In this document: piece after piece, positions 12,962 through 56,855 of the stretch
Layout of the letters: the number at the start of each line of letters is the position of its first letter
How positions within the stretch are numbered: the first letter of the stretch is position 1
Source of the DNA: Bacteroidales bacterium
Lineage (GTDB): Bacteria > Bacteroidota > Bacteroidia > Bacteroidales > VadinHA17
Direction: 5' to 3'
Assembly (NCBI GenBank): GCA_019429325.1
Contig: JAHYJA010000002.1
Location: 1-59,949 of the forward strand
Length of the DNA: 59,949 bases
Notes under the pieces: generated by a model
Databases searched by the model: none
Told to the model about the DNA's origin: nothing
What the model saw: the letters and a program-made list of their open reading frames with translations, nothing else
Program-made: the position numbers and the translations under genes

Positions 12962-13005
12962 TGGATGAATTTGTGATTTGAGGCAAATTACTAAAAAAGA
13001 ATTAT

Positions 13006-13908: not shown

Positions 13909-13917
13909 GGTAAACGG

Positions 13918-14820: not shown

Positions 14821-14864
14821 AGCGCTGCTGTATTAGTTCCGGGTTCCGGGTTTATGGTTAAGGG

Positions 14865-20259: not shown

Positions 20260-21411
20260 TCAATTCCTTATTGAATTGTAATACTCGGTGAAGATCTCAT
20301 TGATAAGAGGTCTGTAATAAAGCCAGAAGAATCTCCTTGTGTCATCAGGCTTGTCTGAATAAAGTAATCCTTTAAGCTTTTCCACGCCAACGAATCTTGA
20401 TGTGCAGTACCAGACCGGGCTTGTGGCGAAATCTCCTGAAAAATAATAAGTTCTTCTGTCAACCGGATCAAGAATTGCAGCAGGAAACTCATTGTCAAGC
20501 ATATTATTAAAGAGGACGGTATCTCCAGCCGCCGTGGTTTCAAGCCTGAACTTCGAAATTACTTCATTCTCCAGAGGATCAATAATATCAAACCAGTTCC
20601 CGAAAGCAACGGAGGAAGGCACCCCGTATTTGTCGCATTGTTCCTGTTCGGTAATTATATAAGGTATGGGGTTGGTCAGGTGAGTCCCCTCTTCCAGAAC
20701 AATTATGTTCTTCTCTGTAAGGAGTACAACACCAGCCTTTGTAAAGGTCCACGGCTGCTTGTATTGTTTTCTGTACATTGCAGTCAGCCAGATAGGGAAA
20801 TCCCTGTCAAGGCTGTCGAGCTTCGGAAAATATTTTCCGGTCCATCCCGTAAACTGCAGTCCCAGTTTCTCCTGTGTTCTGTACGATTCGAACTGGGCGG
20901 TGGGGAAGTCAAAAGTATTGTATTCGAGTATGACCAGCTTGTTCTTCTCTTTCATCTCATTAATGAGAATGTAATCGTTATTGTTCAAACCGCCATAGAG
21001 CCTTCTTGACCTGCGGCTTTTATTGATCCCTGCATAAAAGTCGTTAAAAAAGACCCCATAGGTATCAGCTATATAAAGGGCATCACTCTTTTCGGGAAGA
21101 TCGATCATATCGGAAAGACGGTATTCCCTTTTTGTACTTCCCCTTTCCTTGAGAGGCCTTGTGGGAGAGAATCCGTAATAATCCTTTTTGTAGGAATAAC
21201 TGGTTTTATTGGTGTTTTTTACAAATCTGTTGTTTGTAAGTACCCATACAAATGATTTGTGCCTGATACGCTCCAGAGTGGGTACGGTTTTGTTAAGTAT
21301 TATTATGTCCAAAGGCTTTTTCTCCTGAAAAGTCCAGCGGATCAGATTAACTACAGGCAGGGCTACTAAAACTGCCAGAATAATAATTACTATTAACAGA
21401 GGCTTTTTCAT
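20260..21411 (-). CDS. membrane-anchored hypothetical protein
   Basis: A single N-terminal TM segment (KKPLLIVIIILAVLVALPVV) followed by a ~350-aa soluble domain with no motif I recognise. It is the longest ORF at the locus, with ordinary-looking composition. Confidence 0.55.
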   Translation of the reverse strand: MKKPLLIVIIILAVLVALPVVNLIRWTFQEKKPLDIIILNKTVPTLERIRHKSFVWVLTNNRFVKNTNKTSYSYKKDYYGFSPTRPLKERGSTKREYRLSDMIDLPEKSDALYIADTYGVFFNDFYAGINKSRRSRRLYGGLNNNDYILINEMKEKNKLVILEYNTFDFPTAQFESYRTQEKLGLQFTGWTGKYFPKLDSLDRDFPIWLTAMYRKQYKQPWTFTKAGVVLLTEKNIIVLEEGTHLTNPIPYIITEQEQCDKYGVPSSVAFGNWFDIIDPLENEVISKFRLETTAAGDTVLFNNMLDNEFPAAILDPVDRRTYYFSGDFATSPVWYCTSRFVGVEKLKGLLYSDKPDDTRRFFWLYYRPLINEIFTEYYNSIRN

Positions 21412-23956: not shown

Positions 23957-24664
23957 ATGAAAAAACTATTTCTGGTTATGGCAGGACTATTGGCAGCCAC
24001 TGTCATTCAATCCCAGTCGCTGGAAGAGATCGTTAAAAAGTATTCCGATGCCAACGGACTCGATAATCTTAAAAATGTTACAACTATCAGGATCACAGGA
24101 AAGATGTCCACAATGGGTATGGAAATGCCGCTGGAAATGTTTATGAAAAATCCTGACAAGATAAAAATGGTATACAGTTTCAGCGGGCAGAACATGGTAA
24201 CGGTTTTTGACGGGGAAAAAGGGTATATGGTGAATCCTCTGATGGGTTCAAGCGAACCGGTGGCCCTCACCCCGGAACAGACAAGGCAGATACAGGATAA
24301 CAACGCCTTCAGGAACCAGCTGGTTGAATATCTCAGCAACGGAAAACTGACGCTTGAGGGTGAAGAGGCAGTTGCCGGGAAGCCCGCCTGGAAGCTGAAA
24401 GCACTGGTCGACGGTGCGGACCCGGTATACATGTTTGTCGATAAGGCAAGCTATTATATTGTCAAATCTGCGACTACCGTTAATCAGATGGGAAATACCA
24501 TGAATGTGGAGACTCTGATGTCTGATTATACAAACACCAACGGAGTTGTACTGCCAAAGAAAACTACAACCATTGCAAATGGCATGGAGGCGGCATCTGT
24601 TACTTTTGAAAAAGTAGAAGTAAATGTGCCCATTGAGGACTCCGTGTTCACAATAAAATTGTAA
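23957..24664 (+). CDS. secreted LolA-fold-like (outer-membrane lipoprotein-sorting-like) protein
   Basis: Signal peptide MKKLFLVMAGLLAATVIQSQS, and all-beta composition resembling LolA/LppX-fold proteins. Confidence 0.55.
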   Translation: MKKLFLVMAGLLAATVIQSQSLEEIVKKYSDANGLDNLKNVTTIRITGKMSTMGMEMPLEMFMKNPDKIKMVYSFSGQNMVTVFDGEKGYMVNPLMGSSEPVALTPEQTRQIQDNNAFRNQLVEYLSNGKLTLEGEEAVAGKPAWKLKALVDGADPVYMFVDKASYYIVKSATTVNQMGNTMNVETLMSDYTNTNGVVLPKKTTTIANGMEAASVTFEKVEVNVPIEDSVFTIKL

Positions 24665-34450: not shown

Positions 34451-35659
34451 TTAAGTGCGGATCTTTGATCCTTTCAGGGCAAAGTAAGTTATATATGCGT
34501 AATATACAAACAGACAGCATATTGCCACAACAAGGCCAATTCCTCTCTGGATGCCTCCCATCATTATCGGCAGTAGAGCAGCGCCTATTACCGAGGTGGC
34601 AATTACTCCCGAACCAACTTTGGAATGAATGCCGAGATCCTCCAGGGCAAGATTATAGATACATGGCCACATGATCGAGTGCATAAGCCCGGTTCCAAGG
34701 AACAGCACCAGACCAATCCAGCTCATACCCATTCCACCCAGAACAAGTGATAATAACAGCATTAAAGCACCAATAACGGCGTTGAAACTCAGTATCTTGC
34801 TTGCGGTATACTTCCTGAGGATAAAAATACCGGCTACACGCCCTACCATCAGTCCTGCCCAGTAATAAGCCAGCAATCTTGTCCGCATTTCTCCATCAAA
34901 ATCGAATCCCAGTTTGGCTGAATAATCCGCAAAGAAACTTGGGATACCTATTTCAACTCCCATATAGAAGAATATTGCGAGTGACCCCAGCCACATGTGA
35001 GGATATTTGTAGGCGCTCTTCTTGATCTTTTTTACAACTCCTTCTACCGTTTCAGGCTCTTTGATCTCAGGCAGCTTAAGGAAGAACATAACAACAACTA
35101 TCACCAGTGTAACAATACCGATGCCTGCAAAAGGTCCCTGAACAGTCTTAGGGTCAGTTCCTCCTCCCGTATTGGCTGATACGATCAGCATCGACACAAA
35201 GATCGGTGCAATAACCGTAGCAACCGAGTTCAGGGCATTTGTAAGCGTCAGGCGGCTCGCAGCCGTCTCGGGACTGCCCAGGGCATTAACGTAGGGATTT
35301 GCAGCCACCTGCAGTAATACCACTCCTATTGCGAAAACCGATACTGCACTGAGGAAACCGTAGTACCCGATAGCAACACCCGGTATGCAAAGGAAGAAGC
35401 CTAAGCTGATCATTCCCAGGCCGGCAAGAACGCCGTTTTTGTATCCGATACGATTCAGAAGGTAACCAACAGGGATCGACAGAATATAAGCCCCGTAAAA
35501 AAAGGTGTTCGGAAGCTGTTTCTCAACCTCGTTGAGGCCGAAGGCATCTTTCAGGTAATTGATCAGCGAATTGTTCATGGTTGTGATGAAGCCCAGCAGA
35601 AAGAAAAGTGAGGCCATCACGATAAGCGGAAAAAGGTAGGAAGAGTTTTTGTTTTGCAT
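34451..35659 (-). CDS. sugar MFS transporter (glucose/galactose GluP-like)
   Basis: 402 aa with 12-TM MFS topology. The N-terminal LGFITTMNNSLINYLKDAF motif is typical of the FucP/GluP subfamily. Sits adjacent to galM-galK. Confidence 0.8.
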   Translation of the reverse strand: MQNKNSSYLFPLIVMASLFFLLGFITTMNNSLINYLKDAFGLNEVEKQLPNTFFYGAYILSIPVGYLLNRIGYKNGVLAGLGMISLGFFLCIPGVAIGYYGFLSAVSVFAIGVVLLQVAANPYVNALGSPETAASRLTLTNALNSVATVIAPIFVSMLIVSANTGGGTDPKTVQGPFAGIGIVTLVIVVVMFFLKLPEIKEPETVEGVVKKIKKSAYKYPHMWLGSLAIFFYMGVEIGIPSFFADYSAKLGFDFDGEMRTRLLAYYWAGLMVGRVAGIFILRKYTASKILSFNAVIGALMLLLSLVLGGMGMSWIGLVLFLGTGLMHSIMWPCIYNLALEDLGIHSKVGSGVIATSVIGAALLPIMMGGIQRGIGLVVAICCLFVYYAYITYFALKGSKIRT

Positions 35660-35710
35660 CTCTTTAAGTTTAATTATGTTATAATCAAAAATCTGATAAT
35701 CTGGTACGGG

Positions 35711-36763
35711 TTATCTGGTGCTGAATTTATGTATGCAAACGTGCCTGTATTCCTCGCCGGGATTCAGGATTATCGAGGGGAAATGGGGTTTGTTGATCGC
35801 ATCGGCGAAGTGCTGGGTTTCGAGGCAGAATGACCATCTTCTTCCGTATCTCCTTCCTCCCTTTCCCTTTTCATTGTCAATCCAGTTAGCAGTATATAAC
35901 TGAACACCGGGCTGGGTGGTATGTATTTCCATCACTCTCCCTGATGCAGGATCGTATGCTACTGCGGCAAGCCCCCGCGTTCCGGTGCGATGCTTAAGGA
36001 CAAAGTTATGGTCGTAACCTGCACCGTATCTTATCTGATCATGATCCGCTTCAATCAATTCCCCGATTTTCCTTGGTTCAGTGAAATCCATCGGTGTTCC
36101 CCTGATACTGAGTATTTCTCCTGTGGGGACCGAAGTCTCGTCGGTAGGTGTAAAAAAAGAGGCATTGATCATCAGTTCATGGTCATATATGCTCCCTGAA
36201 CCCTCACCGGCAAGGTTAAAATATGAATGGCTCGCAAGGTTCACTATTGTGGTCTTATCAGTTACAGCCTGGTATCCGATCTGCAATTCATTTTCGTCAG
36301 TCAGGGTATATGTCACTGAAACTCTGAGGTTTCCCGGATATCCTTCTTCTCTGTCAGGCGACAGGTACTCCAGGAGAACTTCAGATGTGGAGTAACGGAT
36401 CACATCCCAGACTACCCTGTTGTATCCTGTTATTCCGCCATGCAGGTGGTTCGGGCCATTATTAACGGCAAGTGAATACTCTTTCCCCAGCAGGGTGAAT
36501 TTTCCCCTGGCTATACGGTTTGCACAACGTCCGCAAATGGCTCCCATATAGGGACCGTTACCATTAATGTAATCAGAAATGTTATCATATCCCTGGACTA
36601 TATCTGCCATATTGCCTTCGCGGTCAGGCACATAGATACTGACAATAATGGCTCCGAAATTCGTTACCTGAGCAACAAGCCCGTTGTTATTTTTCAAAGT
36701 ATAGAGACCAACCGGCTTCCCGTTGTGTACTCCGGCGAACGATTCTTCCCTTATTATATTCAT
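35711..36763 (-). CDS. galM: aldose 1-epimerase (galactose mutarotase)
   Basis: NGPNHLHGG, ASHSYFNL, YDHNFVL and FCLETQHFPD-like motifs. Confidence 0.9.
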   Translation of the reverse strand: MNIIREESFAGVHNGKPVGLYTLKNNNGLVAQVTNFGAIIVSIYVPDREGNMADIVQGYDNISDYINGNGPYMGAICGRCANRIARGKFTLLGKEYSLAVNNGPNHLHGGITGYNRVVWDVIRYSTSEVLLEYLSPDREEGYPGNLRVSVTYTLTDENELQIGYQAVTDKTTIVNLASHSYFNLAGEGSGSIYDHELMINASFFTPTDETSVPTGEILSIRGTPMDFTEPRKIGELIEADHDQIRYGAGYDHNFVLKHRTGTRGLAAVAYDPASGRVMEIHTTQPGVQLYTANWIDNEKGKGGRRYGRRWSFCLETQHFADAINKPHFPSIILNPGEEYRHVCIHKFSTR

Positions 36764-36810
36764 AGTTTTGTTCTTTGCTTCCTTAATAGATGATGATCGC
36801 TTCAGCCAGT

Positions 36811-38097
36811 CTATAACTCTACCAATCCTGCTCCCTGATGTCTTATAAAAAGGTTATGGCATGACCCTTTTCCATAAACATGCTCAAGTGTGCTTACATA
36901 TTTGCCGAGAAGATTCTGAGGGACGAATGCCTGGATGGTACCGGCAAATCCTCCGCCATGTACCCGCCACGCACCTTCGCCCTTCAGCACCAGCTCGCTC
37001 AGCGCCAAAGCAAGGGAGACGTTCTGCTCCCTGATATTGCTGACCGGGTAAATATTCTGGTTATACATGTATGAACTGTAACCTGAATCAACAACCATCC
37101 CCAGGAACGATTTAAAGTCATTTCTTTCAAGCGCCTCTACCTGGTCGACAACCCTCTGGTTGTCTCCCTGGAAGTGTATGGCACGCAGAATAGCCCTGTC
37201 ACCAACTTTTTCACGTATTTTGGGTGCTATCTCAAGCACCTGTTGGAGGCTTACCTCGCGGAGTACTTTTGCTCCCAATTCTGCTGCCACGGCCTTCATA
37301 TCAGTCGGAAGGGAAGCATATTCATCATTAAGGTCGGCGTGGCTCCCCCCGGTATCAGTGATAACCAGTGAAAATCCTGTTGCCACAAAATCGAAATTTA
37401 CTTTTTTAACAACAGGTTTCGAAGGATCTTTAAAATCAATTGTGATAAGGCCGCCCATGGCACAAGCCGTCTGGTCCATCAGTCCGCAGGGTTTGCCGAA
37501 ATAGTTGTTTTCTGAATACTGTCCGATGATTGCATTCTCGATCGGATCGAGTTTTCCATCATTGAAAAAATGGCTGATTATTGCACCGATAAGCACTTCG
37601 AAGGAGGCAGAGGAGCTTAATCCTGATCCCTTCGGCACACCACCATCAATACAGGCGTCAAAACCGCCAATGGCATAGCCCAGATCCTTTAGCCGGGAAC
37701 ATATACCCCGCACCAGGGCTGCTGATGTATATCTCTCACTTTCATCTGGTTTAAGGGATGTCAGATCAACTTCAAACTTCGGATAATCCTCCGACCAGAT
37801 CCGTATTACGTTTTTACCGTTCTTTCCGGCGATGCCGGCAATGTCGAGGTTGACTGCACCTGCAAGCACCCTTCCGTAATTATGGTCTGTGTGATTGCCC
37901 CCGATTTCCGTGCGGCCGGGAGAACTGAAATATGACGCATCATTACTGTCACCAAATTCACCGGCATATCTGCTTAATAATTCAATATACCTTGAAGCAT
38001 TTCGTTTCAAAACAACCGGATCATTTCCGTAAAGTTCGCGGAATGCTCTGTTATCACCATTATTGATCTTTTCAATCAGATTTTTTGTCTTTGTCAT
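36811..38097 (-). CDS. galK: galactokinase
   Basis: GRTEIGGNHTDHNYG signature and the GHMP motif GGVPKGSGLSSSASFE. ATG 38097 chosen; the track's upstream extension is hydrophobic junk. Confidence 0.9.
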   Translation of the reverse strand: MTKTKNLIEKINNGDNRAFRELYGNDPVVLKRNASRYIELLSRYAGEFGDSNDASYFSSPGRTEIGGNHTDHNYGRVLAGAVNLDIAGIAGKNGKNVIRIWSEDYPKFEVDLTSLKPDESERYTSAALVRGICSRLKDLGYAIGGFDACIDGGVPKGSGLSSSASFEVLIGAIISHFFNDGKLDPIENAIIGQYSENNYFGKPCGLMDQTACAMGGLITIDFKDPSKPVVKKVNFDFVATGFSLVITDTGGSHADLNDEYASLPTDMKAVAAELGAKVLREVSLQQVLEIAPKIREKVGDRAILRAIHFQGDNQRVVDQVEALERNDFKSFLGMVVDSGYSSYMYNQNIYPVSNIREQNVSLALALSELVLKGEGAWRVHGGGFAGTIQAFVPQNLLGKYVSTLEHVYGKGSCHNLFIRHQGAGLVEL

Positions 38098-38222
38098 GGA
38101 AATTTTATTTTGAGGATTATGATTGAACGTAAATATAATAATTGTCATTAAATAATGAATGAGGCTGTCCCAAAACATAATCCGGGACAGCCTCCTTCAA
38201 GAAATGATTATTAACCAGGCTT

Positions 38223-39554
38223 TTACTTATGCTTACTGCCAACCAGGGCAAAAAATACAATATAAAGGTAACAGATAATCGGCAGAATAAATGAAAATCT
38301 CACACCTATTCCGTCAGCAAGGAGGCCCATAAGGACAGGGATCACCGCTCCACCGACAATCATTGTATTGATAAGTCCTGAAGCCATGCTGAGTTCACCC
38401 TTGTCAAGCCCGTCAACACCGAGTGCAAAAATATTGGGGAACATAATTGAGTTAAAGAACCCTATGGATAAACCTACCCAAAGAATGATTGGTCCATTGA
38501 CAGACATTACCACTACCAGCAACAAAGCGGCAATTAAGCCGAAAACAGCGAGAGATCTGCTTGCATTGCCCCTGCCGAGCTGCATTGCAAGATAATTTAC
38601 CACGGCAATCCCTGCGAAAATCAGACCATCGGTTATTTCTTTTCTTACGAACCAGCCGACGAACATGGCAAGGGCAACAACAAGGACAGCATACATGTAT
38701 TTCTTTGATTTTTCAACATCCGAGAGCATGAATGATCCGTAAAACCTGCCAACCATTGCACCACCCCAGTAAAGGGCTATCATCATTGCGGCATCATTTC
38801 TGGCTATCTGCAAGGCTTCCTGGAAATATCTCTGAAGCATGGCTGCAGATCCTACTTCGGCACCTACGTAACAGAAAATACCTACAGCACCCAGAATCGT
38901 ATGCGTATGGCTCCAGACACTTTTCTTTTCAACACCTTTGGTTGGAATTTCGGGGAGCCTTAAAAAATAGATAGCCACAGCAATAATAATAACCACTATG
39001 GCAATGATTAAGAACGGAGTGGTCGGGACTGATTCAGCGGCGTTGAGAGCTGCAGTTGCGGCTGCCTTAAAAACGAACAGACCTGCAAGAATTGGTGCAA
39101 TATAGGTCGCAATGGAGTTAAGTGCCTGGGTAAGGTTTAGTCTGGCCGAAGCAGTCTGTGATGGTCCAAGCGCAGTGACGTAGGGATTCGCAGCTGTTTG
39201 CAGAAAGACGACACCGCCAGCCATGATAAAAATAGCAAACAGGAAAAATGGAAAGGATATTGCTTTCGCGGCAGGAAAAAACAGAAAGCTGCCGACAGCC
39301 ACAAGTAAAAGACCAAGAATAACACCTGCCTTGTAACCGATCCTCTTGATTATGCCACCGGCTGTAAAAGAGAGTACAAAATAGGTAAAGAAAAAGGCCC
39401 CATTAACCAGCTGGGCCTGAAAGTTCGACAGCTCAAAAACTGCCTTGAACTTATCTGCCAGCGTAATATTAAAAGTCGTAACGAATCCGAACAGGAAGAA
39501 GATCATTCCCATAAAGGCCATGCCGATGGCCTGCGTGTTTTTCTGTTCTGTCAT
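38223..39554 (-). CDS. sugar MFS transporter (FucP/GluP family, second paralogue)
   Basis: 443 aa with 12-TM MFS topology and an N-terminal FLFGFVTTFNITLADKFK motif. Confidence 0.8.
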   Translation of the reverse strand: MTEQKNTQAIGMAFMGMIFFLFGFVTTFNITLADKFKAVFELSNFQAQLVNGAFFFTYFVLSFTAGGIIKRIGYKAGVILGLLLVAVGSFLFFPAAKAISFPFFLFAIFIMAGGVVFLQTAANPYVTALGPSQTASARLNLTQALNSIATYIAPILAGLFVFKAAATAALNAAESVPTTPFLIIAIVVIIIAVAIYFLRLPEIPTKGVEKKSVWSHTHTILGAVGIFCYVGAEVGSAAMLQRYFQEALQIARNDAAMMIALYWGGAMVGRFYGSFMLSDVEKSKKYMYAVLVVALAMFVGWFVRKEITDGLIFAGIAVVNYLAMQLGRGNASRSLAVFGLIAALLLVVVMSVNGPIILWVGLSIGFFNSIMFPNIFALGVDGLDKGELSMASGLINTMIVGGAVIPVLMGLLADGIGVRFSFILPIICYLYIVFFALVGSKHK

Positions 39555-41260: not shown

Positions 41261-42037
41261 TTATCCATTCTTCAGTTCCGGAGGCAGAAACCGGAAGAAG
41301 GTATCACCGCGAAGTCCGCAGCGCAGGGATTCGAGAGGAATGATCTCATTAGGGGCAATATTGCCGAGGTTCACATTGGCTCCGAAATTATTGATAAACC
41401 AGATCTGCTGGGGCTTTAGCGGTGCTTCCCAGATTACTTTATCAAAGCCAATATGTTCTGAAATGGCACTTATCAAAGCTGTATTCGCCGACCCGTCGTC
41501 GTTATAGATACCAACTGTGCCTGACTCCCGCGCTTCCGCAATCACTTTGACCGAGCCTGCCCCGAGCTCGGACTTCATCATGCTAACCCATTCATCCGGC
41601 GTGTAGACCACGTTCTTCTTTTTGGATCCCACTTCAGAAATAACAGTGCCTCTTTCAGCAAGACGCTCAATATATTCAAGCTTTCTTCCATGCTCGATCT
41701 CGAAAGATCCGTCGGATACCTCAACAAACTCAAACTCATATTTATCAAGGAAATCAATGTAATCACCGAACATATTCCTCACAATAAAAGCTTCAAAGAG
41801 GGTGCCACCGGGATAGGGAATTACATCATGCTTCTTGTACAACTGCACTTTCCTTTCAAAATGTGGAGTCAGGATCGACGTGCCGAATCCCAGTTTTACA
41901 AAATCGGTATAGCCGCTGCCAACCGACATGAAATCTTCTGCTTCCCTGAGGCTCATGCCCTTATCCATAACCATGGTAATTCCTTCTTTTCGCGGTTTCT
42001 CAGGCCTGTCGGGAATGTATGGTAGAATTGTTTTCAT
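41261..42037 (-). CDS. comA: phosphosulfolactate synthase (ComA family)
   Basis: 258 aa. The N-terminus ...RPEKPRKEGITMVMDKG...YTDFVKLGFGTS... is characteristic of (2R)-phospho-3-sulfolactate synthase TIM barrels. Confidence 0.75.
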   Translation of the reverse strand: MKTILPYIPDRPEKPRKEGITMVMDKGMSLREAEDFMSVGSGYTDFVKLGFGTSILTPHFERKVQLYKKHDVIPYPGGTLFEAFIVRNMFGDYIDFLDKYEFEFVEVSDGSFEIEHGRKLEYIERLAERGTVISEVGSKKKNVVYTPDEWVSMMKSELGAGSVKVIAEARESGTVGIYNDDGSANTALISAISEHIGFDKVIWEAPLKPQQIWFINNFGANVNLGNIAPNEIIPLESLRCGLRGDTFFRFLPPELKNG

Positions 42038-48842: not shown

Positions 48843-49081
48843 TAATATCTCTGTTTTTCCGCCTGCAAATATAACATTTTTAAAATATTGCCGTATAAAA
48901 CAGAGATCCCGCGACAGAAGGATCAGAACCAATCGGGCATTTTTTCAAACAGACTGGTTTTATTTATAGACTGGCGATTATTTTTGACAATTGTTCATTT
49001 CTTTTTGATGAAGGGTATGGAATAAACTTAAAAGAAGTTTTATTTTTGATTATGGTACTTAAATTCAGAAGCGGCAAAAAA

Positions 49082-49552
49082 ATGAAAGAGCCCATTTCCC
49101 CAAGCGAGCTGAAGAATCTTTTTGTAGACCCCACAGAAAAATCTCCCCTGATCGACCTTAACCATTTTACAGGAGAACTTATTATTGCGGGCAAATCGAT
49201 TCCTGTAAATGCAATCAAAATTTTCGAACCTGTCTTTAAATGGGTGACCGATTATGTGAAAAATCCCAGGCACACGACTAACCTCAGGCTTAATCTGGAA
49301 TATTTCAATACTGCATCCTCCATCTGGCTGGCAAAGATTGTCAAGGCTCTGGCCGGGATCAAAAATCCTGAATACGTACTCTTCCTTCATATATACTTCC
49401 CGATCGAAGATTTTGAAGATATCGAGGATATCAAGGACGATCTCAGTCCTGTTATCGACGTTATCAGCAATTCCACAGTAAGCATCGGTTTGAAGATATA
49501 CGGCACTGATGAACAAGGCAAGATCCTCAAGGAATCGATGATCTTCATCTAA
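49082..49552 (+). CDS. DUF1987 (SiaC-like) domain protein
   Basis: ...GELIIAGKSIPVNAIKIFEPVFKWVTDYVKNP...LRLNLEYFNTASS... matches the SiaC/DUF1987 pattern (G-S-xPEN, F-P-WL, L-YFNTSS). The longer antisense ORF has no recognisable features. Confidence 0.6.
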   Translation: MKEPISPSELKNLFVDPTEKSPLIDLNHFTGELIIAGKSIPVNAIKIFEPVFKWVTDYVKNPRHTTNLRLNLEYFNTASSIWLAKIVKALAGIKNPEYVLFLHIYFPIEDFEDIEDIKDDLSPVIDVISNSTVSIGLKIYGTDEQGKILKESMIFI

Positions 49553-49638
49553 AACCCACCGGGACCTTTTATCCTGCAATCCATAGAATCTTTTAATTTT
49601 TTGGCCTAACTTTGTTATGCCATAATTTTTTTTGAACA

Positions 49639-51150
49639 ATGCGAAAATTTTGCTTTATTCTGATTTTAATAATATTTCTTGTAATGGAAAGCTATTCCCA
49701 GAAAAGACAGGCTGACCGTCAACCGGCAGCCGCAGGAAGATTTTACGCCGCCAATAAAGAAACACTCATGAACGATCTCTCCCGGCACTTCGGGAACTGC
49801 GTGAAAAGCCCCGGAAATCAGAATGTCAGAGCTATTATCAGTCCTCACGCCGGCTATGTCTTCTCGGGCAATACCGCCGCTTCAGCTTTCTCCGCTGTTG
49901 ACAGGGACAAACCTCTTAAAAACATCTTCATCATAGGCTCCAGCCATATAATGCTGTTCGACGGCGCTTCAGTATATGGTTCAGGAGATTTTATTACCCC
50001 ATTGGGTAAGATAACCGTAAACAAAGAGATAGCAGGGAAACTCAGCAAAGAGAACAGAGTTTTCAACACATCGGTAACGGCTCATACACAGGAGCACAGC
50101 CTTGAAGTACAGATTCCATTTATCCAGTACTACTTTACCTCAGATCCCATGATCGTTCCCATCATTATAGGAACCAACAATACAAACAGTGTAAGGAAAA
50201 TCGCCGACGCTCTTAAGCCATGGTTCACGCAGGAAAATCTTTTTGTTATCAGCAGTGATTTCTCTCATTATCCTTCCTACAAGGATGCCATGGAAACAGA
50301 TGACATCACTGCCAACAGCATCGTCTCAGGGAATCCACAGGAATTTCTTAATACACTGAAGAGGAACTCCGAGAGAAATATTCCGGGACTCTCAACGAGC
50401 ATGTGCGGATGGACATCTGGTCTGCTGCTTATGTATCTGACCGAAGGAAATGACCTGCTCGAATATAAACGTATAGATTATTGCAACTCCGGTGACACCC
50501 GCTATGGCAATAAGGATGAAGTAGTTGGTTATCATGCGATTGCCGTTATCGAAAAAAACAATAAGCCGGCAGCCGCAAATTCACTTACAGATGAAATCTC
50601 CCTGACAGAACGGGAGACAGAAATGCTCTTCTCAATAGCTCGCAGCAGCATACAATCAAAGCTCGACAACCAGAAAATAACCCTCCCTGATGAAAAATCA
50701 CTTCCTGAGTTGTTCAGAAAGCCACTGGGGGCTTTTGTCACACTTAAAATAGACGGAAAATTAAGGGGTTGCATTGGCAGATTCGTCTCATCAGATCCAC
50801 TCTATGAAGTTGTTTCCGCATCGGCATGCTCTTCAGCATTTGAAGATGCCCGGTTCTCTCCTCTTACCAAACGGGAATATTCCAGAACCGAGATGGAAAT
50901 AACCGTCCTCGGACCCCTCAGAAAGATAAATGATATTAAGGAAATTATACCGGGTAAACATGGCATCTATATTAAAAAGGATTTCAGATCCGGAACAATG
51001 CTGCCCCAGGTTGCCACAGAGAACGGATGGAGCCTCGAGGAGTTCCTCGGCTATACATCGCGCGACAAGGCCGGTATAGGATGGGACGGATGGAAAAACG
51101 CCGAAATATATATTTACGAGGGACTGGTTCTTGAGGAAAACAAAAAGTAA
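49639..51150 (+). CDS. fused AmmeMemoRadiSam system protein B (MEMO1-like) and protein A (AMMECR1), with N-terminal signal peptide
   Basis: Signal/anchor MRKFCFILILIIFLVMESYS. MEMO motifs ISPHAGYVFSG, EHSLEVQIPF and SSDFSHY. AMMECR1 motifs LRGCIGRF, DARFSPL and LPQVA in the last ~190 aa. Confidence 0.85.
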   Translation: MRKFCFILILIIFLVMESYSQKRQADRQPAAAGRFYAANKETLMNDLSRHFGNCVKSPGNQNVRAIISPHAGYVFSGNTAASAFSAVDRDKPLKNIFIIGSSHIMLFDGASVYGSGDFITPLGKITVNKEIAGKLSKENRVFNTSVTAHTQEHSLEVQIPFIQYYFTSDPMIVPIIIGTNNTNSVRKIADALKPWFTQENLFVISSDFSHYPSYKDAMETDDITANSIVSGNPQEFLNTLKRNSERNIPGLSTSMCGWTSGLLLMYLTEGNDLLEYKRIDYCNSGDTRYGNKDEVVGYHAIAVIEKNNKPAAANSLTDEISLTERETEMLFSIARSSIQSKLDNQKITLPDEKSLPELFRKPLGAFVTLKIDGKLRGCIGRFVSSDPLYEVVSASACSSAFEDARFSPLTKREYSRTEMEITVLGPLRKINDIKEIIPGKHGIYIKKDFRSGTMLPQVATENGWSLEEFLGYTSRDKAGIGWDGWKNAEIYIYEGLVLEENKK

Positions 51151-51152
51151 TC

Positions 51153-53585
51153 ATGTATCATGTAGCGGGCACATCCTCAATTGCAATTATATTATACCTG
51201 ATCAGTTATTTCCTATACCGTAACGGCTTCTATACACTACAGATACACAGGAAATTATGGAATTCAATCCTGGCCCTTACATTCCTGTTCACAGCCCTTG
51301 CAGGTATCTTTCTTGCACTTCAGATCAATTATAAATGGAATATCCCTCTCACCGGCTTCCTGCTTAAATGGCACGTGGAAACCGGTGTGGCCATGGCCTT
51401 TGCCGGTTTCTTTCATCTGCTCTGGCACGTTTCGTATTACCTGAGATTGTTTGAGAAACATGACACGCCATCAGGCGAAAAGACATTTAATAACACCGAT
51501 ACAGCTGGCATTAAGGTCAACCTTTTTATAGTTGGTTTTATAAGCTCGGCTTTTCAGCTTTTGCTGATAAGGGAAATGATGAACCTCACAGGAGGGTATG
51601 AGCTTATTACCGGCACCTTTCTGGCTTCGTGGCTGATCACCTCGGCTATCGGATCTGTAATAGCCGGCAAATCAAACCTGTACAACCTGAAAAGAATTAA
51701 TCTGATCTTTTCTGTGAGCCCGCTGGTTTCTGTTTTTTTGTTTCTCCTGCTCTCCCGACTGTTTCTTAATACTGGAGAGACACCGGGCTTTCTGGCAAGT
51801 ATGATCTATACTCTTCTTGTGCTGCTGCCTTTCTGTACCATCTCGGGCTTCACTTTTATCAAATTAATCTCGGCAGCAAGATTATCAAGGAATTATACTC
51901 CCGGAAAATCTTTTTCAATTGAGACCGGCGGCGGTATAATATCAGGTATTTTAGTCGCAATTCTGAGCGCCGGCCTTCTTAATACCTATCAGATGTTGCT
52001 GGTACTAATCGTTTCCGGTGTTTCGTATGCTTTGCTGACATTTTACATTAAGTCGCCTGTGACCGGAATCATTGTCAGAACAATAGTTTTTATCCTCCTC
52101 TCCACGCTGATCATTACAAATCCTGATATTCTTTTCCGGTCACTGCTACTGCCCGGCATAACAGTCAACAGCTCGGAAGACACTCCATACGGGAATATTG
52201 TCAGAGGTGAATATGGTGGTGAACCCAGCATTTATTACAACCAGAGACTGGTTGCTTACCATGCCAATAGTGTTGAAAGGGAGGAGAATATTCACTACGC
52301 TGTGCTGCAGAGCGTCAATCCCGATAAATTGCTTCTGATCTCCGGTTCGATAAACTCCCATTTCGCGGAGATACTGAAGCATCCTGTAAGGGAAGTGGTG
52401 TATGTCGAACGCGATCCGGCCCTGACAAGACTGGAGGATATCCCTTTGCATGAAGGGCAGGCCAGGCTGGTTATTGAAACTGATGATGCATTCAGGTATA
52501 TAAGAAGCACCCCGAAAATGTTTGACGTCATTATACTTCTTCTACCCCCACCGTCCTCACTTCTTCTGAATAAATATTATACTGTTGAATTCTTCAGGTC
52601 AGTAAAGTCCCGGCTTAATCCCGGCGGAATCTTCATGTGTTCGCCAGGCATCTCATCAGGTTATTATAACGACGAAATGCTAAGACTCTTTTCTTCAGTT
52701 TATAATACACTCTCGGATGAATTCAGGAATGTTTTACCGATTGAGGGACATAAACTTTATTTTATTGCGTCGGATTCTGAACTCTCAGCATCATTCTGCC
52801 AACTTGCCGATGAAAGAAAAATCCAGAATACCTATGTCTCTGCCGATTTCCTCTCTGACGATCTGGTAACTGCAAAGTCAGAGGAGATCGTTGCCCTGAT
52901 GGACACGAATGTGAAAAGGAACAGGGCAATGTTCCCTGTAGCCTGCTTCTATTACCAGTCATATAATTTAAGCAGGAACATTCACCAGAAAACCCCATCG
53001 ATCATAATAATCCTGACTCTTTTTGTGCTTCCCATGTTCCTAATCAAAAGAAGGAATATACTTATGTATTCCTGTGCATCAGCGCTTGCGGGCTTTGAAA
53101 TCATCGTGCTTGTGATCCTTCAGATCACAGCCGGTAACATGTACCAGCTTACCGGCCTTATAATTGCAGGCCTTATGACCGGTCTTGCATACGGGGCGGG
53201 ATTCAGCATAAGCTTGCTTAATAATCTTTCAGTTACGGTCAAGAGTCTCATCCTTGTCTGCTCGTATCTACTTGCAGGTCTTATTGTTACAGGAATTACA
53301 GAAATAAAATCCCTCCAGCTTGTAACCGGGCTTCTTATCCTTTCTGCATTCATTCCGGCCCTGCTCACCGGGCACCTTTTCCGGATATTTACTTTAAAAA
53401 GCGGTTCAGAAGCAGATTCCGTCACTTCAGCGGTTTATACAGCCGACCTGGCAGGTTCTGCCCTTGGTTTTATTCTGATCTCAGGGCTTATTGTGCCTGC
53501 TCTCGGGATCAGGGCAGGAATATTTATCATAGCTGCTATGGTAATAAGCGGTTTTGTTGCCGGTGGGGCAGGAAAAAAGCTTTAG
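51153..53585 (+). CDS. polytopic membrane protein with central spermidine-synthase-like (PABS) domain
   Basis: 810 aa. About 8 N-terminal and about 7 C-terminal hydrophobic helices flank a soluble domain that aligns by eye with SpeE (LLLISGSINS..VYVERDP..DDAFRYI..FDVIILLLPPP..LNPGGIF). Starts 2 nt after the previous stop. Confidence 0.7.
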   Translation: MYHVAGTSSIAIILYLISYFLYRNGFYTLQIHRKLWNSILALTFLFTALAGIFLALQINYKWNIPLTGFLLKWHVETGVAMAFAGFFHLLWHVSYYLRLFEKHDTPSGEKTFNNTDTAGIKVNLFIVGFISSAFQLLLIREMMNLTGGYELITGTFLASWLITSAIGSVIAGKSNLYNLKRINLIFSVSPLVSVFLFLLLSRLFLNTGETPGFLASMIYTLLVLLPFCTISGFTFIKLISAARLSRNYTPGKSFSIETGGGIISGILVAILSAGLLNTYQMLLVLIVSGVSYALLTFYIKSPVTGIIVRTIVFILLSTLIITNPDILFRSLLLPGITVNSSEDTPYGNIVRGEYGGEPSIYYNQRLVAYHANSVEREENIHYAVLQSVNPDKLLLISGSINSHFAEILKHPVREVVYVERDPALTRLEDIPLHEGQARLVIETDDAFRYIRSTPKMFDVIILLLPPPSSLLLNKYYTVEFFRSVKSRLNPGGIFMCSPGISSGYYNDEMLRLFSSVYNTLSDEFRNVLPIEGHKLYFIASDSELSASFCQLADERKIQNTYVSADFLSDDLVTAKSEEIVALMDTNVKRNRAMFPVACFYYQSYNLSRNIHQKTPSIIIILTLFVLPMFLIKRRNILMYSCASALAGFEIIVLVILQITAGNMYQLTGLIIAGLMTGLAYGAGFSISLLNNLSVTVKSLILVCSYLLAGLIVTGITEIKSLQLVTGLLILSAFIPALLTGHLFRIFTLKSGSEADSVTSAVYTADLAGSALGFILISGLIVPALGIRAGIFIIAAMVISGFVAGGAGKKL

Positions 53586-53658
53586 TTTTCTTAAATTTGA
53601 GAAATTTAATCAATCTCTCGTGCCGCGTAACGGATCCGACATAAGCAAACGTGAGTTC

Positions 53659-54756
53659 ATGAAAAAGTGTCTGGCTTTTTCAGCAGGGATGGCTTGCTTA
53701 CCCGCCTCCGTGACATTTGCCGGCATACCCCGGCCGGATCAGTCCGCCGGCAGAAAAATTGCATTGTTCCAGGAAGAGACTCCCAGAGGGATAATGTGCA
53801 GGATTTGTCCGAATGAGTGTGTTCTCAGAGAGGGTGAACTTAGTCAGTGCAATAATCGCAGAGTGATCAGATCGAAACTATATACGCTTGCGTATGGTAA
53901 TCCGTGTTCAGCGAATGTTGATCCTGTTGAGAAAAAGCCTTTTTATCACTTCCTGCCTGGTTCGAGAACATATTCTATCGCCACCGCAGGCTGCAATATG
54001 GCATGCCTCAATTGCCAGAACTGGTCCATATCACAGACGAGTCCCGTTAAAACCAGGAACTTTGATCTGATGCCGGCGAAAGTACTTGAGGAATGCGTCG
54101 TCAGGGATTGTAAATCCATTGCATATACCTATACTGAGCCTGTAACATTCTATGAATACACCTACGAAACTGCCACTCTCGCAAAAAAAGCCGGGATAAA
54201 AAATATTCTCAAAACTAACGGATATATCAACCAGGAGCCACTCCGGCAGCTTTGCACCGTAATAGATGCGGCCAACGTCGATCTGAAATCATTTAACAAC
54301 AACACCTATCTGAGGCTTACAGGAGGAAAGCTGCAACCTGTCCTCGATTCATTGCTTACTTACAGGGATATGGGGGTTTGGCTGGAAATAACATATCTTA
54401 TTGTCCCCGCATGGACCGACAATACTGATGAAATACGGCAAATGTGCAGATGGCTGAGCAATAACGGTCTGGCTAAATCACCAATACATTTCAGCAGGTT
54501 TTACCCTACGCATAAGCTGCAGCAACTACCGCCCACCCCGGTAGAGACCCTGGAAAAGGCAGCAAAGATAGCAGCTGAGGAAGGTCTTCTCTATGTATAC
54601 ACAGGCAATGTTCCAGGCAATCAGCTCTCCGACACAAAATGTCCGGCTTGCAGTTCCACAGTTATCTCAAGGCAGGGTTACCGTGTTGCGTACAACACCC
54701 TGAGGGAAGGTAAATGCCCGAAATGTGCCGCATCAGTTGAAGGCATCTGGACCTGA
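53659..54756 (+). CDS. AmmeMemoRadiSam system radical SAM enzyme
   Basis: N-terminal Cys module CRICPNECVL...C, radical SAM CNMACLNC (CxxxCxxC), and C-terminal CPAC...CPKC. The start is uncertain: ATG 53659, GTG 53620 or the track's 53554. Confidence 0.85.
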   Translation: MKKCLAFSAGMACLPASVTFAGIPRPDQSAGRKIALFQEETPRGIMCRICPNECVLREGELSQCNNRRVIRSKLYTLAYGNPCSANVDPVEKKPFYHFLPGSRTYSIATAGCNMACLNCQNWSISQTSPVKTRNFDLMPAKVLEECVVRDCKSIAYTYTEPVTFYEYTYETATLAKKAGIKNILKTNGYINQEPLRQLCTVIDAANVDLKSFNNNTYLRLTGGKLQPVLDSLLTYRDMGVWLEITYLIVPAWTDNTDEIRQMCRWLSNNGLAKSPIHFSRFYPTHKLQQLPPTPVETLEKAAKIAAEEGLLYVYTGNVPGNQLSDTKCPACSSTVISRQGYRVAYNTLREGKCPKCAASVEGIWT

Positions 54757-56809: not shown

Positions 56810-56855
56810 CCAATAAGCGTTGCATACATTATCAAAAAACTCTTAGGTTTGCAAA

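Follow-up and report, generated by a model that had tools for sequence, protein, structure and literature searches.

Four genes follow one another on the forward strand of the window, by which we mean the whole 59,949-nucleotide stretch of Bacteroidales DNA that was analysed. They encode a SiaC-family (DUF1987) protein (49082..49552), a 503-aa Memo-AMMECR1 (AmrB-AmrA) fusion (49639..51150), an 810-aa membrane protein of 17 helices (51153..53585) and a 378-aa radical SAM enzyme (53620..54756 with a corrected GTG start), which we call AmrS after amrS, the RefSeq gene name for the AmmeMemoRadiSam radical SAM enzyme. The four reading frames are those described in a first-pass annotation made from the letters alone. 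The successive gaps measure 86 nt, 2 nt and, with the corrected start, 34 nt, and the SiaC, fusion and radical SAM starts are closely preceded by Bacteroidota-type -7 boxes (TAnnTTTG). In three relatives an opposite-strand permease gene is found between the membrane gene and the radical SAM gene. The SiaC-like protein matches Pfam SiaC (E = 2e-19) and reaches 48 bits with the NCBIfam SiaC equivalog, below the 150-bit cut-off. Its gene is present in most of 84 close Bacteroidales loci and in 0/84 distant loci. It does lie 86 nt upstream of the fusion gene, as the first-pass annotation had it, but it is a clade-specific neighbour only and not a core component.

All three AmmeMemoRadiSam families are matched above curated cut-offs. 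Residues 27-303 of the fusion match TIGR04336 (AmmeMemoSam_B, E = 8e-69), residues 329-495 match TIGR04335 (AmmeMemoSam_A, E = 4.5e-45), and AmrS matches TIGR04337 (E = 2.9e-100, 335 bits against a cut-off of 220), which bears out the identities first assigned from motifs. Memo, AMMECR1 and the radical SAM enzyme all keep their catalytic residues in the exported-type forms described below. Across 58 fusions, the conserved positions are H70, H103, H153, E156, D207, H210 and C256 in the Memo part and L-R376-G377-C378-I-G380 in the AMMECR1 part; the conserved cysteines of AmrS are C60/C63/C67, C125/C129/C132 and C341/C344/C366/C369. The fusion itself had been taken as atypical. It is previously known and hence not new: AMMECR1-dioxygenase fusions were already reported in 2007 (PMC2034487), and the B-A fusion is also found in signal-less systems, for example Ideonella amrB.

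The fusion has 26 N-terminal residues ahead of its homology to human MEMO1 and TIGR04336. They contain a predicted Sec-type signal peptide (49639..49698, forward strand), MRKFCFILILIIFLVMESYS followed by Q, with the n-h-c layout of a cleaved signal. The N-terminus is hydrophobic in 78/80 close fusions and in 48/49 complete distant ones (126/129 complete cases overall). In Bacteroidota relatives the signal ends in '..SQ', with the predicted cut between S and Q, and in others it ends in lipobox-like (Cys) or AxA sites.

The reading frame of AmrS is open upstream of ATG 53659, where the gene was originally placed. In a 91%-identical relative an ATG lies exactly at the position of GTG 53620 of the window, and on this basis the gene most likely spans 53620-54756; the identity of the enzyme stands and its start is revised. 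Starting at ATG 53659 would remove a conserved N-terminal motif. This motif is a Tat-like signal (53620..53724, forward strand), ..S-K10-R11-E-F-M-K-K plus CLAFSAGMACLPASVTFAG, and it aligns column by column with the canonical twin-arginine signals of high-GC relatives. Over 56 orthologs the aligned positions are S/D/T/N, R (32) or K (24), R (56/56), x, F (44), L/I/M and K/R, which fits the Tat consensus S/T-R-R-x-F-L-K, with K-R in place of R-R at Bacteroidota-type loci. K-R with a hydrophobic stretch is found in 79/81 close loci. The distant loci whose N-terminus is complete comprise 32 with R-R and a hydrophobic stretch, 25 with K-R and a hydrophobic stretch and two with R-R and a weaker stretch; none lacks the motif. 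The RR-type orthologs match Pfam TAT_signal or UCR_Fe-S_N in 8/8 cases tested, one of them above the cut-off of UCR_Fe-S_N, the Rieske Tat-signal model. Thus, the signal-peptide-like N-termini first noticed on both enzymes are conserved across close and distant loci.

The membrane protein begins 2 nt after the fusion gene and includes the PABS (aminopropyltransferase)-like domain that had been suspected (Pfam Spermine_synth at aa 380-497, 40.6 bits against a cut-off of 22.9). NCBIfam holds no AmmeMemoRadiSam model for it. In the AF2 model (pLDDT 77.9, pTM 0.79), its core consists of two six-helix halves, aa 117-299 (51501..52049) and aa 637-805 (53061..53567), and alignment of the first half to aa 634-808 with hhalign (probability 97.8%, E = 8.5e-13, 160 columns) supports the inference of a duplicated 6+6 helix bundle. 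Pfam MFS_1 does not match the core, and Foldseek finds only a weak match to the MFS transporter SLC45A4 (E = 2e-3), so we describe the core as MFS-like on the strength of the internal repeat and this match. R140 and E141/E150 are invariant charged residues inside the membrane.

The PABS-like domain (aa ~336-600, 52158..52952) is flanked by two extra helices, TM7 and TM8. It was identified with Foldseek (1uir and 6bq2, E = 1e-9, target TM-score 0.63-0.68) and phmmer (Thermus thermophilus SpeE, E = 2e-15); scores with the SpeE equivalog models are far below cut-offs. Relative to T. thermophilus SpeE, GGGEG is replaced by SGSINS and the catalytic D-x-x-D by L-x-x-P. The domain has therefore lost its catalytic Asp pair (a family-wide loss) and GGGDG motif, and it retains the acidic ribose/adenine-binding residues E419 and D445. 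These comparisons indicate computationally that the domain is catalytically dead but keeps its adenosine-binding residues; there are no ligand-binding data. Counted over 24 family members, K+R residues in the short loops average 1.5 on the side of the PABS-like domain and 19.1 on the opposite side. The bias is consistent in 24/24, and from the positive-inside rule the domain is predicted to face the periplasm.

The first 95 residues (51153..51437) form a His/Trp-rich module of three helices in which five residues (H74, H88, H92, W36 and N37) are invariant and two more, H32 and W91, reach at least 90% conservation. AF2 confidence is low over this module, and many family members are affected by its absence, in forms of ~710 aa. 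Among 26 members, sub-threshold Pfam matches are to DUF4405 (10/26), Ferric_reduct (9/26) and cytochrome b561 (6/26), with a best E of 0.009. DUF4405 proteins have been shown experimentally to bind heme b (PMC11334425). Given only this weak resemblance to heme-b cytochromes and no heme-binding data, a heme-b electron-transfer domain is possible.

We compared the locus across genomes using 84 close loci (80 from species-representative genomes and four from metagenome/MAG contigs) and 84 distant loci (L085-L168), in which the membrane protein is 25-32% identical. In the close set the fusion, membrane and radical SAM genes are kept together wherever the contig is complete, and the flanking genes for Ffh, ArgRS, LigA, DUF6913 and DapA are also conserved. 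In the distant set the membrane gene adjoins Memo, AMMECR1 or radical SAM genes in 74/84 loci, 50 with all three and 24 with some; the 10 with none are mostly short contigs. The flanks of these loci are unrelated, the genes occur in three orders (collinear, divergent and convergent), and the GC content of linked loci ranges from 0.34 to 0.71. The three genes also remain together in distant Bacteroidota, where the flanks are unrelated. Exceptions are L085, without a nearby radical SAM gene, and L086, without a nearby Memo/AMMECR1 gene. Apart from these genes, the only ones that recur in the distant loci encode Tat-signal DUF362 proteins (21 loci), histidine kinases or, in 4 loci, a B12-type radical SAM protein. 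The synteny of the membrane protein with AmmeMemoRadiSam genes thus holds in the 80 close genomes and in distant loci, and it is very likely an obligate partner of Memo, AMMECR1 and the radical SAM enzyme.

Where the membrane gene is missing, the signals differ. None of seven plasmid- or chromid-borne amrS homologs has a membrane partner within 6-8 kb, and 0/7 carry a signal; the membrane protein itself has zero plasmid matches. Export signals are also absent from the canonical AmmeMemoRadiSam proteins examined (Ideonella, Trichlorobacter, Sinorhizobium, Methylocystis and Mycobacterium, and the PDB entries of archaeal AMMECR1 and human MEMO1). Segatella hominis has a signal-bearing fusion, a signal-less radical SAM enzyme and no membrane partner; therefore, the two enzymes need not share a compartment.

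Our proposal for the locus is an extracytoplasmic AmmeMemoRadiSam module of four components, to which we assign a probability of roughly 0.55 on computational evidence only, without experimental data. Gene content, linkage, signal motifs, topology and catalytic-residue loss were established computationally, and profiles, synteny and export signals support the envelope-associated variant, with the membrane protein as functional partner, that the first-pass annotation suggested. That all three proteins are extracytoplasmic we regard as probable. The fusion would be exported by Sec and its signal peptide cleaved before Gln. AmrS would be exported folded with its Fe-S clusters through the Tat-type signal, in which K-R would replace the twin arginine in Bacteroidota (the presence of tatA/tatC in the lineage is not established). 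The membrane protein would meet both enzymes through its periplasmic PABS-like domain, inserted into the central loop of the duplicated 6+6 MFS-like core with an extra helix on either side, and may provide for needs of a radical SAM enzyme that are not met outside the cytoplasm. In such a scheme SAM would be exported through the transporter-like core, the dead, adenosine-binding domain would hold it or pass it on and, in Bacteroidota forms, the His-rich module would serve as a heme-b relay for electrons. This supply of SAM and electrons is inferred and remains tentative; substrate access is an alternative inferred role. AmrS is closest to the activases of pyruvate formate-lyase, enzymes whose targets are proteins, and its own target for activation or modification might be the Memo-AMMECR1 protein itself or a substrate in the envelope.

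To our knowledge, the function of the AMMECR1/Memo/radical-SAM trio is still unexplained, periplasmic activity has not been demonstrated for any radical SAM enzyme, and the periplasm is not known to contain SAM; we found nothing in the literature on a periplasmic radical SAM enzyme or periplasmic SAM. If AmrS works outside the cytoplasm, this would be very unusual for a radical SAM enzyme. Possession of AMMECR1 is strongly indicative of an anaerobe (PMC13386939), which makes an oxygen-labile periplasmic enzyme plausible in these organisms.

The membrane protein could instead be the substrate or scaffold, its transmembrane core only anchoring the complex, with AmrS installing a radical or post-translational modification on the PABS-like domain or on docked Memo-AMMECR1. 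The proximity of AmrS to activases that act on proteins fits this, as do the invariant E377, H381, E406, K409 and Y504 of the PABS-like domain, which aminopropyl transfer does not explain, and linkage and co-localisation fit it equally well. The arrangement in Segatella, with an exported fusion and a cytoplasmic radical SAM enzyme, suggests that the enzyme can act on the fusion before export, by analogy with anaerobic sulfatase maturases, which modify their protein at that stage. We nevertheless consider it unlikely, because a mere anchor needs no conserved duplicated 12-helix core with invariant R140 and E141/E150, and because it leaves unexplained both the source of SAM and electrons for a periplasmic radical SAM enzyme and the appearance of the AmrS signal only with the membrane protein.

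Less likely still, the membrane protein could transport or flip a membrane lipid (an isoprenoid, quinone or polyprenyl-linked compound) and present it to the periplasmic enzymes, with the PABS-like domain binding the head group and SAM supplied otherwise. Such a lipid-facing role is compatible with a polytopic 6+6 core that carries a periplasmic domain, and a pocket that has lost the aminopropyltransferase catalytic residues may serve another use. A 2019 abstract by Burroughs and colleagues is reported to connect the clade that includes Memo with modification of nucleotide bases and of aliphatic isoprenoids. However, no lipid or isoprenoid biosynthesis genes are recurrent in the 84 distant loci, and conservation of the adenosine-binding residues of real PABS enzymes argues for a nucleoside ligand.

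The enzymes might also stay in the cytoplasm, the K-R motif not being a working Tat signal and the hydrophobic N-termini tethering them to the inner membrane face. SAM and low-potential reductants are cytoplasmic, canonical AmmeMemoRadiSam proteins lack signals, and the K-R signal of the window matches neither TIGR01409 nor Pfam TAT_signal or UCR_Fe-S_N. Against this, the same column is R-R in 32 orthologs of the type that match Tat models, the fusion has an n-h-c layout with S-Q in Bacteroidota or a lipobox-like Cys elsewhere, and the partner domain is predicted to be periplasmic in 24/24 family members. Natural K-R Tat signals exist, such as that of Salmonella TtrB, and conservative R-to-K changes are reportedly tolerated (work by Stanley and colleagues in 2000). 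We judge retention in the cytoplasm improbable. Conserved housekeeping flanks in the close clade would allow inherited synteny without function, with the membrane protein an unrelated membrane-bound polyamine synthase or transporter, but this is contradicted by linkage at 25-32% identity across unrelated flanks, three gene orders and a wide range of GC contents, by the family-wide loss of the Asp residues and by the low SpeE scores, and we give it almost no weight.

Several known systems share parts of the proposed extracytoplasmic module. After its own family, AmrS best matches the activases of pyruvate formate-lyase and other glycyl-radical enzymes, its closest characterised and structurally solved relatives (TIGR02493, E = 1e-18; PDB 3c8f, E = 3e-10 over the radical SAM core). 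It differs from PflA in an extra N-terminal CxxCxxxC, a C-terminal four-Cys motif and the Tat-type signal, it scores far below PflA cut-offs, and no glycyl-radical enzyme is encoded near the locus. With Tat-exported Fe-S proteins (the Rieske protein, hydrogenase small subunits) the AmrS family shares an S/T-R-R-x-F-L-K-type signal on an Fe-S protein, although the window copy has K-R and not R-R; we know of no SAM-dependent radical enzyme as Tat cargo. Relatives of the membrane protein are named 'fused MFS/spermidine synthase' or 'spermidine synthase' by NCBI and JGI, and NF037959 ('fused MFS/spermidine synthase') and PRK03612 likewise join a polytopic region to a PABS fold. The membrane protein falls below both curated cut-offs (24 against 40 bits and 62 against 472 bits), its PABS domain lies between the core halves and not at one end and is predicted to be periplasmic, and it lacks the catalytic Asp and has the extra N-terminal His-rich module. 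We know of no function for this family or for NF037959/PRK03612-type proteins. Conserved His in transmembrane helices is shared by the His-rich module with DUF4405, MsrQ/ferric-reductase-type proteins and cytochrome b561, although the module has three helices and not six and all its matches are sub-threshold; those relays follow the same logic of passing electrons to an extracytosolic enzyme (PMC11334425). Another is canonical AmmeMemoRadiSam (amrA/amrB/amrS), whose three families are all present here in adjacent genes, with catalytic and cluster-binding residues conserved and with a B-A fusion that canonical systems also have. Whereas the canonical proteins examined have neither signals nor a membrane partner, this locus combines a Tat-type radical SAM enzyme, a predicted Sec-exported fusion and a 17-helix fourth gene.

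The four plus-strand open reading frames described in the first-pass annotation are all present. The three AmmeMemoRadiSam families are neighbours on one strand (49639-54756), and both close and distant loci keep this neighbourhood. The 503-aa product of 49639-51150 (+), called here the fusion, had been read as Memo joined to AMMECR1, and TIGR04336, TIGR04335, Pfam Memo and Pfam AMMECR1 all match it: residues 27-303 correspond to TIGR04336 (protein B, 231.9 bits against a cut-off of 26) and residues 329-495 to TIGR04335 (protein A, 153.1 bits against a cut-off of 99). The identity proposed for the last gene, the AmmeMemoRadiSam radical SAM enzyme AmrS, is supported by TIGR04337 (335.5 bits, cut-off 220). 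Its start had been placed at ATG 53659, which is probably too far downstream: the frame is open upstream, a conserved motif is encoded there, and in L047 (Bacteroidales bacterium UBA5621, 91% identical) an ATG stands at the position of GTG 53620. Thus, the gene most likely spans 53620-54756 (+). Between these two genes, starting 2 nt past the fusion stop codon, lies the gene for the 810-aa membrane protein (51153-53585, +). The suggested search with Spermine_synth gave its sole database match (Pfam, 40.6 bits, cut-off 22.9, residues 380-497). Scores against the SpeE equivalog models were 40 bits for TIGR00417 (cut-off 250), 46 for PRK00811 (260) and 62 for PRK03612 (472), and NF037959, "fused MFS/spermidine synthase", reached 24.4 bits (cut-off 40) over the spermidine-synthase-like (PABS-like) part only. 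The 156-aa product of the upstream gene (49082-49552, +), described as a SiaC-like DUF1987 protein, is a member of the SiaC/DUF1987 family but not a SiaC equivalog (NF038265, 48 bits against a cut-off of 150), and no phosphatase, kinase or diguanylate cyclase gene, the partners in SiaABCD, adjoins it.

Residues expected for catalysis are retained. The Memo metal-site residues H70, H103, D207, H210 and C256 are conserved across the exported forms, as is the AMMECR1 motif L-R-G-C-I-G (Cys in 55 of 58 sequences). In AmrS the cluster motifs C60/C63/C67, C125/C129/C132 and C341/C344/C366/C369 are conserved, the second of these being the CxxxCxxC motif kept in 56 orthologs. From this conservation we infer that the exported forms are working enzymes, not relics.

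Export-type N-termini had been claimed for both enzymes, and sequence comparison supports this, with a predicted Sec-type signal on the fusion and a Tat-like signal on AmrS, each conserved in relatives. In the fusion, residues 1-26 lie ahead of the part homologous to MEMO1 and the family model and have a signal-peptide layout, MRKFCFILILIIFLVMESYS followed by Q. A hydrophobic N-terminus is found in 78 of 80 close relatives and in 48 of 49 distant ones with complete N-termini. The segment ends in "..SQ" in Bacteroidota relatives and in lipobox-like Cys or AxA sites in other lineages. In Bacteroidetes, signal peptidase I substrates begin with Gln, a rule that the "..SQ" end fits.

In AmrS, a K-R pair followed by a hydrophobic stretch lies upstream of the first Cys motif in 79 of 81 proteins of the close clade. 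Among the distant orthologs with complete N-termini, 32 have R-R and 25 K-R with a hydrophobic stretch, two have R-R with a weaker stretch, and none lacks the basic-pair motif. The alignment of 56 orthologs reads [S/D/T/N], then R (32) or K (24), R (56 of 56), any residue, F (44), [L/I/M] and [K/R]. Judged by alignment, these columns correspond to the Tat consensus S/T-R-R-x-F-L-K, except that Bacteroidota-type loci have Lys for the first Arg; the window protein begins S-K-R-E-F-M-K-K before its hydrophobic stretch. All eight R-R N-termini tested match Pfam TAT_signal (best E 1.7e-4), and one of those tested scores above the cut-off of the Rieske Tat-signal model. The window K-R N-terminus matches neither of these models, nor TIGR01409. 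One rival reading is that the export signals are non-functional. The Tat assignment in the window rests on positional homology with the R-R orthologs because the Tat models miss the K-R form, and no Tat components were found among the scanned open reading frames of this 60-kb window; conservative R-to-K changes are, for their part, tolerated by Tat. The hydrophobic stretch of the K-R-type signal also has a conserved Cys at its end (..SAG[LM]xC[FL]P.., encoded at 53668-53700 in the window, and in orthologs). A lipoprotein reading of this Cys was rejected, since position -1 is mostly occupied by L, I, V, M or F.

The family of the membrane protein is large: a search of a representative library gave 5,490 members at E <= 1e-3, of which 1,433 reached E <= 1e-30. 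The family comprises forms of about 800-850 aa and forms of about 710 aa that lack the first ~115 residues. Relatives were found at 547 loci in species-representative genomes, and the best 80 of the 547, which we examined, all come from uncultured Bacteroidales MAGs of one clade. In this close clade the order SiaC-family gene, fusion, membrane gene, AmrS gene is kept, but so are the housekeeping flanks, with Ffh and ArgRS on one side and LigA, DUF6913 and DapA on the other. The close clade alone therefore cannot distinguish a functional link from inherited synteny. Across the close loci (L001-L084) the membrane protein diverges fastest, at 48-65% identity to the window protein except in the nearest relative, L047; its neighbours are mostly at 60-76% (Memo), 65-80% (AMMECR1) and 65-76% (AmrS).

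More distant loci separate the two explanations. On four Bacteroidota contigs, at about 30% identity and with unrelated flanks, the membrane gene still lies beside the fusion gene, the AmrS gene or both. A metagenome scan seeded with the ~710-aa forms supplied 80 further distant loci, at 25-32% identity to the window protein. Memo, AMMECR1 and AmrS all lie beside the membrane gene in 50 of the 84 distant loci and some of them do so in 24; the 10 loci with none are mostly short contigs. The GC content of these loci ranges from 0.34 to 0.71, and the genes stand in one of three orders: as in the window (collinear), with the fusion gene divergent from the membrane gene, and with the AmrS and fusion genes convergent on it. 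The first-pass annotation had proposed a neighbourhood survey and named lack of synteny in related genomes as the outcome that would refute its operon; synteny held in close and distant loci alike. Because the linkage persists at such distances, we regard the membrane protein, on the evidence of gene context, as a conserved fourth component of this AmmeMemoRadiSam variant. No model in NCBIfam release 20 names it as such. The SiaC-family gene lies beside the system in 0 of 84 distant loci, that is, nowhere outside the clade of the window.

Several loci depart from these arrangements or add to them. L085 (10536-11351) has fusion and membrane genes with an RraA-like gene and no AmrS gene nearby, and L086 (5973-7483) has membrane and AmrS genes without Memo or AMMECR1, with two unannotated open reading frames upstream (247 and 220 aa). 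Four distant Bacteroidota-type loci have, upstream of the fusion gene and divergent from it, a gene for a 732-aa radical SAM protein (L088, 4037-6235; same cluster in L113, L117 and L145). It matches Pfam Radical_SAM only, and its B12-binding-like appearance is an untested impression. In the high-GC convergent loci (L140-L168 group), the system is flanked by one or two DUF362 proteins of ~337 aa that carry canonical Tat signals (for example L146, 13173-14186 and 6917-7933; the DUF362 cluster is present in 21 loci), and a DUF6599 lipoprotein is often near. The DUF362 and DUF6599 proteins may be lineage-specific extra components.

The AlphaFold2 model of the membrane protein (pLDDT 77.9, pTM 0.79) places three N-terminal helices, seven helices, a globular domain (residues ~336-600) and seven more helices in succession. 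The globular domain has a complete aminopropyltransferase fold (Foldseek matches 1uir and 6bq2, E 1e-9, target TM-score 0.63-0.68). Relative to T. thermophilus SpeE, the GGGEG motif that binds dcSAM is SGSINS in the window, and the catalytic D-L-T-D-P is L-L-P-P-P, or N-x-P-x-P-S-T across the wider family. The acidic residues E419 and D445, at the positions of ribose and adenine contacts, are conserved across the family. Because the catalytic and dcSAM motifs are gone and these two residues are kept, the domain is, to judge from its motifs, probably no longer an aminopropyltransferase and may still bind an adenosyl ligand, for which there are no binding data. Lipid presentation is a rival role for the membrane protein; the residues that its PABS-like domain retains are those at ribose and adenine contacts.

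The membrane core consists of two homologous halves, residues 117-300 and 634-808 (hhalign probability 97.8%, E 8.5e-13), and can thus be read as a duplicated 6+6 bundle that resembles an MFS transporter and holds, in its central loop, an inserted unit of helix 7, PABS-like domain and helix 8. The spliced 12-helix core of six family members gave no match to Pfam MFS_1, whereas the true MFS proteins of the window (cluster at 34451-39554) match it easily. The sole MFS structural match, SLC45A4, is weak (Foldseek, E 2e-3, rmsd 27 A). Averaged over 24 family members, the short loops carry 19.1 Lys and Arg residues on one side of the membrane and 1.5 on the opposite side. The PABS-like domain is predicted to lie on the K/R-poor, periplasmic side, and both halves of the core agree on this independently.

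The N-terminal module has five invariant residues (H74, H88, H92, W36 and N37), and H32 is at least 90% conserved. Its sub-threshold Pfam matches are concentrated in the DUF4405, ferric-reductase and cytochrome b561 families. For DUF4405, the window protein gives E 0.38-0.67 and 10 of 26 members match (best E 0.009), with no score reaching the cut-off. Binding of heme b by DUF4405 proteins has been shown by experiment (PMC11334425). A heme-b domain here is a lead only, because the confidence of the AlphaFold2 model is low in this module.

A homology search with the fusion returned close relatives only, and a contrast set was drawn from plasmid and chromid records. It comprises seven homologs of amrS, as RefSeq names the gene for this radical SAM enzyme, from Ideonella, Trichlorobacter, Sinorhizobium (two), Methylocystis, Candidatus Mycobacterium methanotrophicum and Segatella hominis. 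None of the seven has a membrane PABS-like gene within 6-8 kb, and a search of the plasmid records with the membrane protein gave no match. All seven enzymes have short hydrophilic N-termini running directly into the Cys motif, with no signal (0 of 7). The Tat-type signal on AmrS is present at 138 of 140 loci with the membrane partner versus 0 of 7 without it. Thus, across these 140 and 7 loci, the signal co-occurs with the membrane partner and is found only where the membrane protein is present.

The same set bears on the fusion of proteins B and A, which had been called atypical. It is ordinary: Ideonella amrB is a B-A fusion without a signal, and such a fusion was already reported in 2007 (PMC2034487). 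Segatella hominis, a cultured Prevotellaceae species, is the exception in the set (L169, 4408-6825, NZ_CP137560.1). Its 491-aa amrB is a B-A fusion with a signal-like N-terminus, MRKIVLVVLLTMCMMMEA, whereas its amrS product (295 aa) has neither a signal nor the C-terminal Cys motif, and a membrane partner is missing. Such a pairing of exported fusion and cytoplasmic radical SAM enzyme may mean that maturation precedes export.

Only 2 nt lie between the fusion and membrane genes, which couples the two, although there are no transcript data. Bacteroidota-type -7 boxes (TAnnTTTG, + strand) lie 41 nt upstream of the SiaC-family start (49041-49048), 32 nt upstream of the fusion start (49607-49614), 28 nt upstream of the AmrS start (53592-53599) and immediately upstream of the DUF6913 start (56844-56851). 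Over the whole window such boxes are no commoner than expected (39 against 41.5). A scan for sigma-70 promoters and terminators exceeded its shuffled controls only slightly, with a consensus that does not cover Bacteroidota-type promoters. In three close relatives (L035, L055 and L075) the gap between membrane and AmrS genes is ~2.8 kb. In L035, the only one whose gap contents were read, it holds an oppositely oriented gene for a 798-aa FtsX/MacB-like ABC permease (12524-14920), so the AmrS gene can be transcribed on its own.

Elsewhere in the window, the product of 41261-42037 (-) is a strong match to ComA, (2R)-phospho-3-sulfolactate synthase (E 3e-86), in a Bacteroidales genome, its gene adjoining a gene with a shikimate-dehydrogenase N-terminal domain. 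The 987-aa product of 17296-20259 (+) fuses an FAD-linked oxidase to a 4Fe-4S dicluster domain. The products of 20260-21411 (-; 383 aa) and 23957-24664 (+; 235 aa), both of fair size, match nothing in Pfam at E <= 1e-5. The cluster at 34451-39554 (-) resembles one for galactose utilisation (MFS transporter, aldose 1-epimerase, galactokinase, second MFS transporter) and is ordinary context.

The most economical reading of the locus is an extracytoplasmic AmmeMemoRadiSam module, because three independent lines (the Sec signal of the fusion, the Tat-type signal of AmrS and the periplasm-facing domain of the partner) agree and because AmrS carries its signal only alongside the membrane protein. 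The envelope-associated variant envisaged in the first-pass annotation is supported to this extent, by computation alone; Tat genes in the lineage have not been checked. On this extracytoplasmic reading the membrane protein would, by inference, supply a radical SAM enzyme with what is lacking outside the cytoplasm. SAM would arrive through the transporter-like core and the adenosine-binding dock and, in Bacteroidota, electrons would arrive through the heme-b-like N-terminal module; high-GC lineages instead have the Tat-signal DUF362 proteins nearby. In full, this would be the first periplasmic radical SAM system, a Tat-exported AmrS and a Sec-exported Memo-AMMECR1 protein serviced by a membrane protein that exports or presents SAM via a catalytically dead periplasmic domain, with heme-b electron transfer in Bacteroidota. 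We consider this full proposal doubtful, with a probability of roughly 0.3. If it is true, the strict co-occurrence of Tat signal and membrane partner defines an "export kit" for extracytoplasmic radical SAM chemistry.

The membrane protein might instead be a substrate or scaffold. As to the substrate, AmrS is closest to glycyl-radical activases, and this kinship, together with the exported fusion and cytoplasmic enzyme of Segatella, points to the Memo-AMMECR1 protein itself as a plausible target of AmrS.

Conservation of the AMMECR1/Memo/radical-SAM trio extends from archaea to humans, and AMMECR1 and MEMO1 are human disease-linked genes; to our knowledge, no substrate or reaction has been assigned to the trio. 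The variant offers testable handles, namely a likely envelope compartment, an obligate-looking fourth partner with a nucleoside-binding fold, and the co-occurrence rule. Should AmrS work extracytoplasmically, radical SAM chemistry could no longer be assumed to be cytoplasmic, and SAM and low-potential electrons would need a way across the membrane. In a 2026 survey AMMECR1 is the strongest Pfam marker of anaerobes (PMC13386939), which fits an oxygen-labile periplasmic enzyme.

We did not find in the searchable literature a partnership of the membrane family with AmmeMemoRadiSam, a Tat-type signal on its radical SAM enzyme, radical SAM enzymes that are periplasmic or exported by Tat, the placement of the PABS-like domain on the periplasmic side or the rule linking signal and partner, nor anything relevant on the fused MFS/spermidine synthase. 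Burroughs et al. 2019, who reportedly added to the known gene contexts of Memo, may have recorded some of these features. Already known are the trio, the B-A fusion and "fused MFS/spermidine synthase" as an annotation name. An older proposal has the AMMECR1/Memo/radical-SAM system modify RNA bases (PMC2034487). An exported version is hard to reconcile with that role, and attention therefore shifts to protein maturation or envelope substrates.
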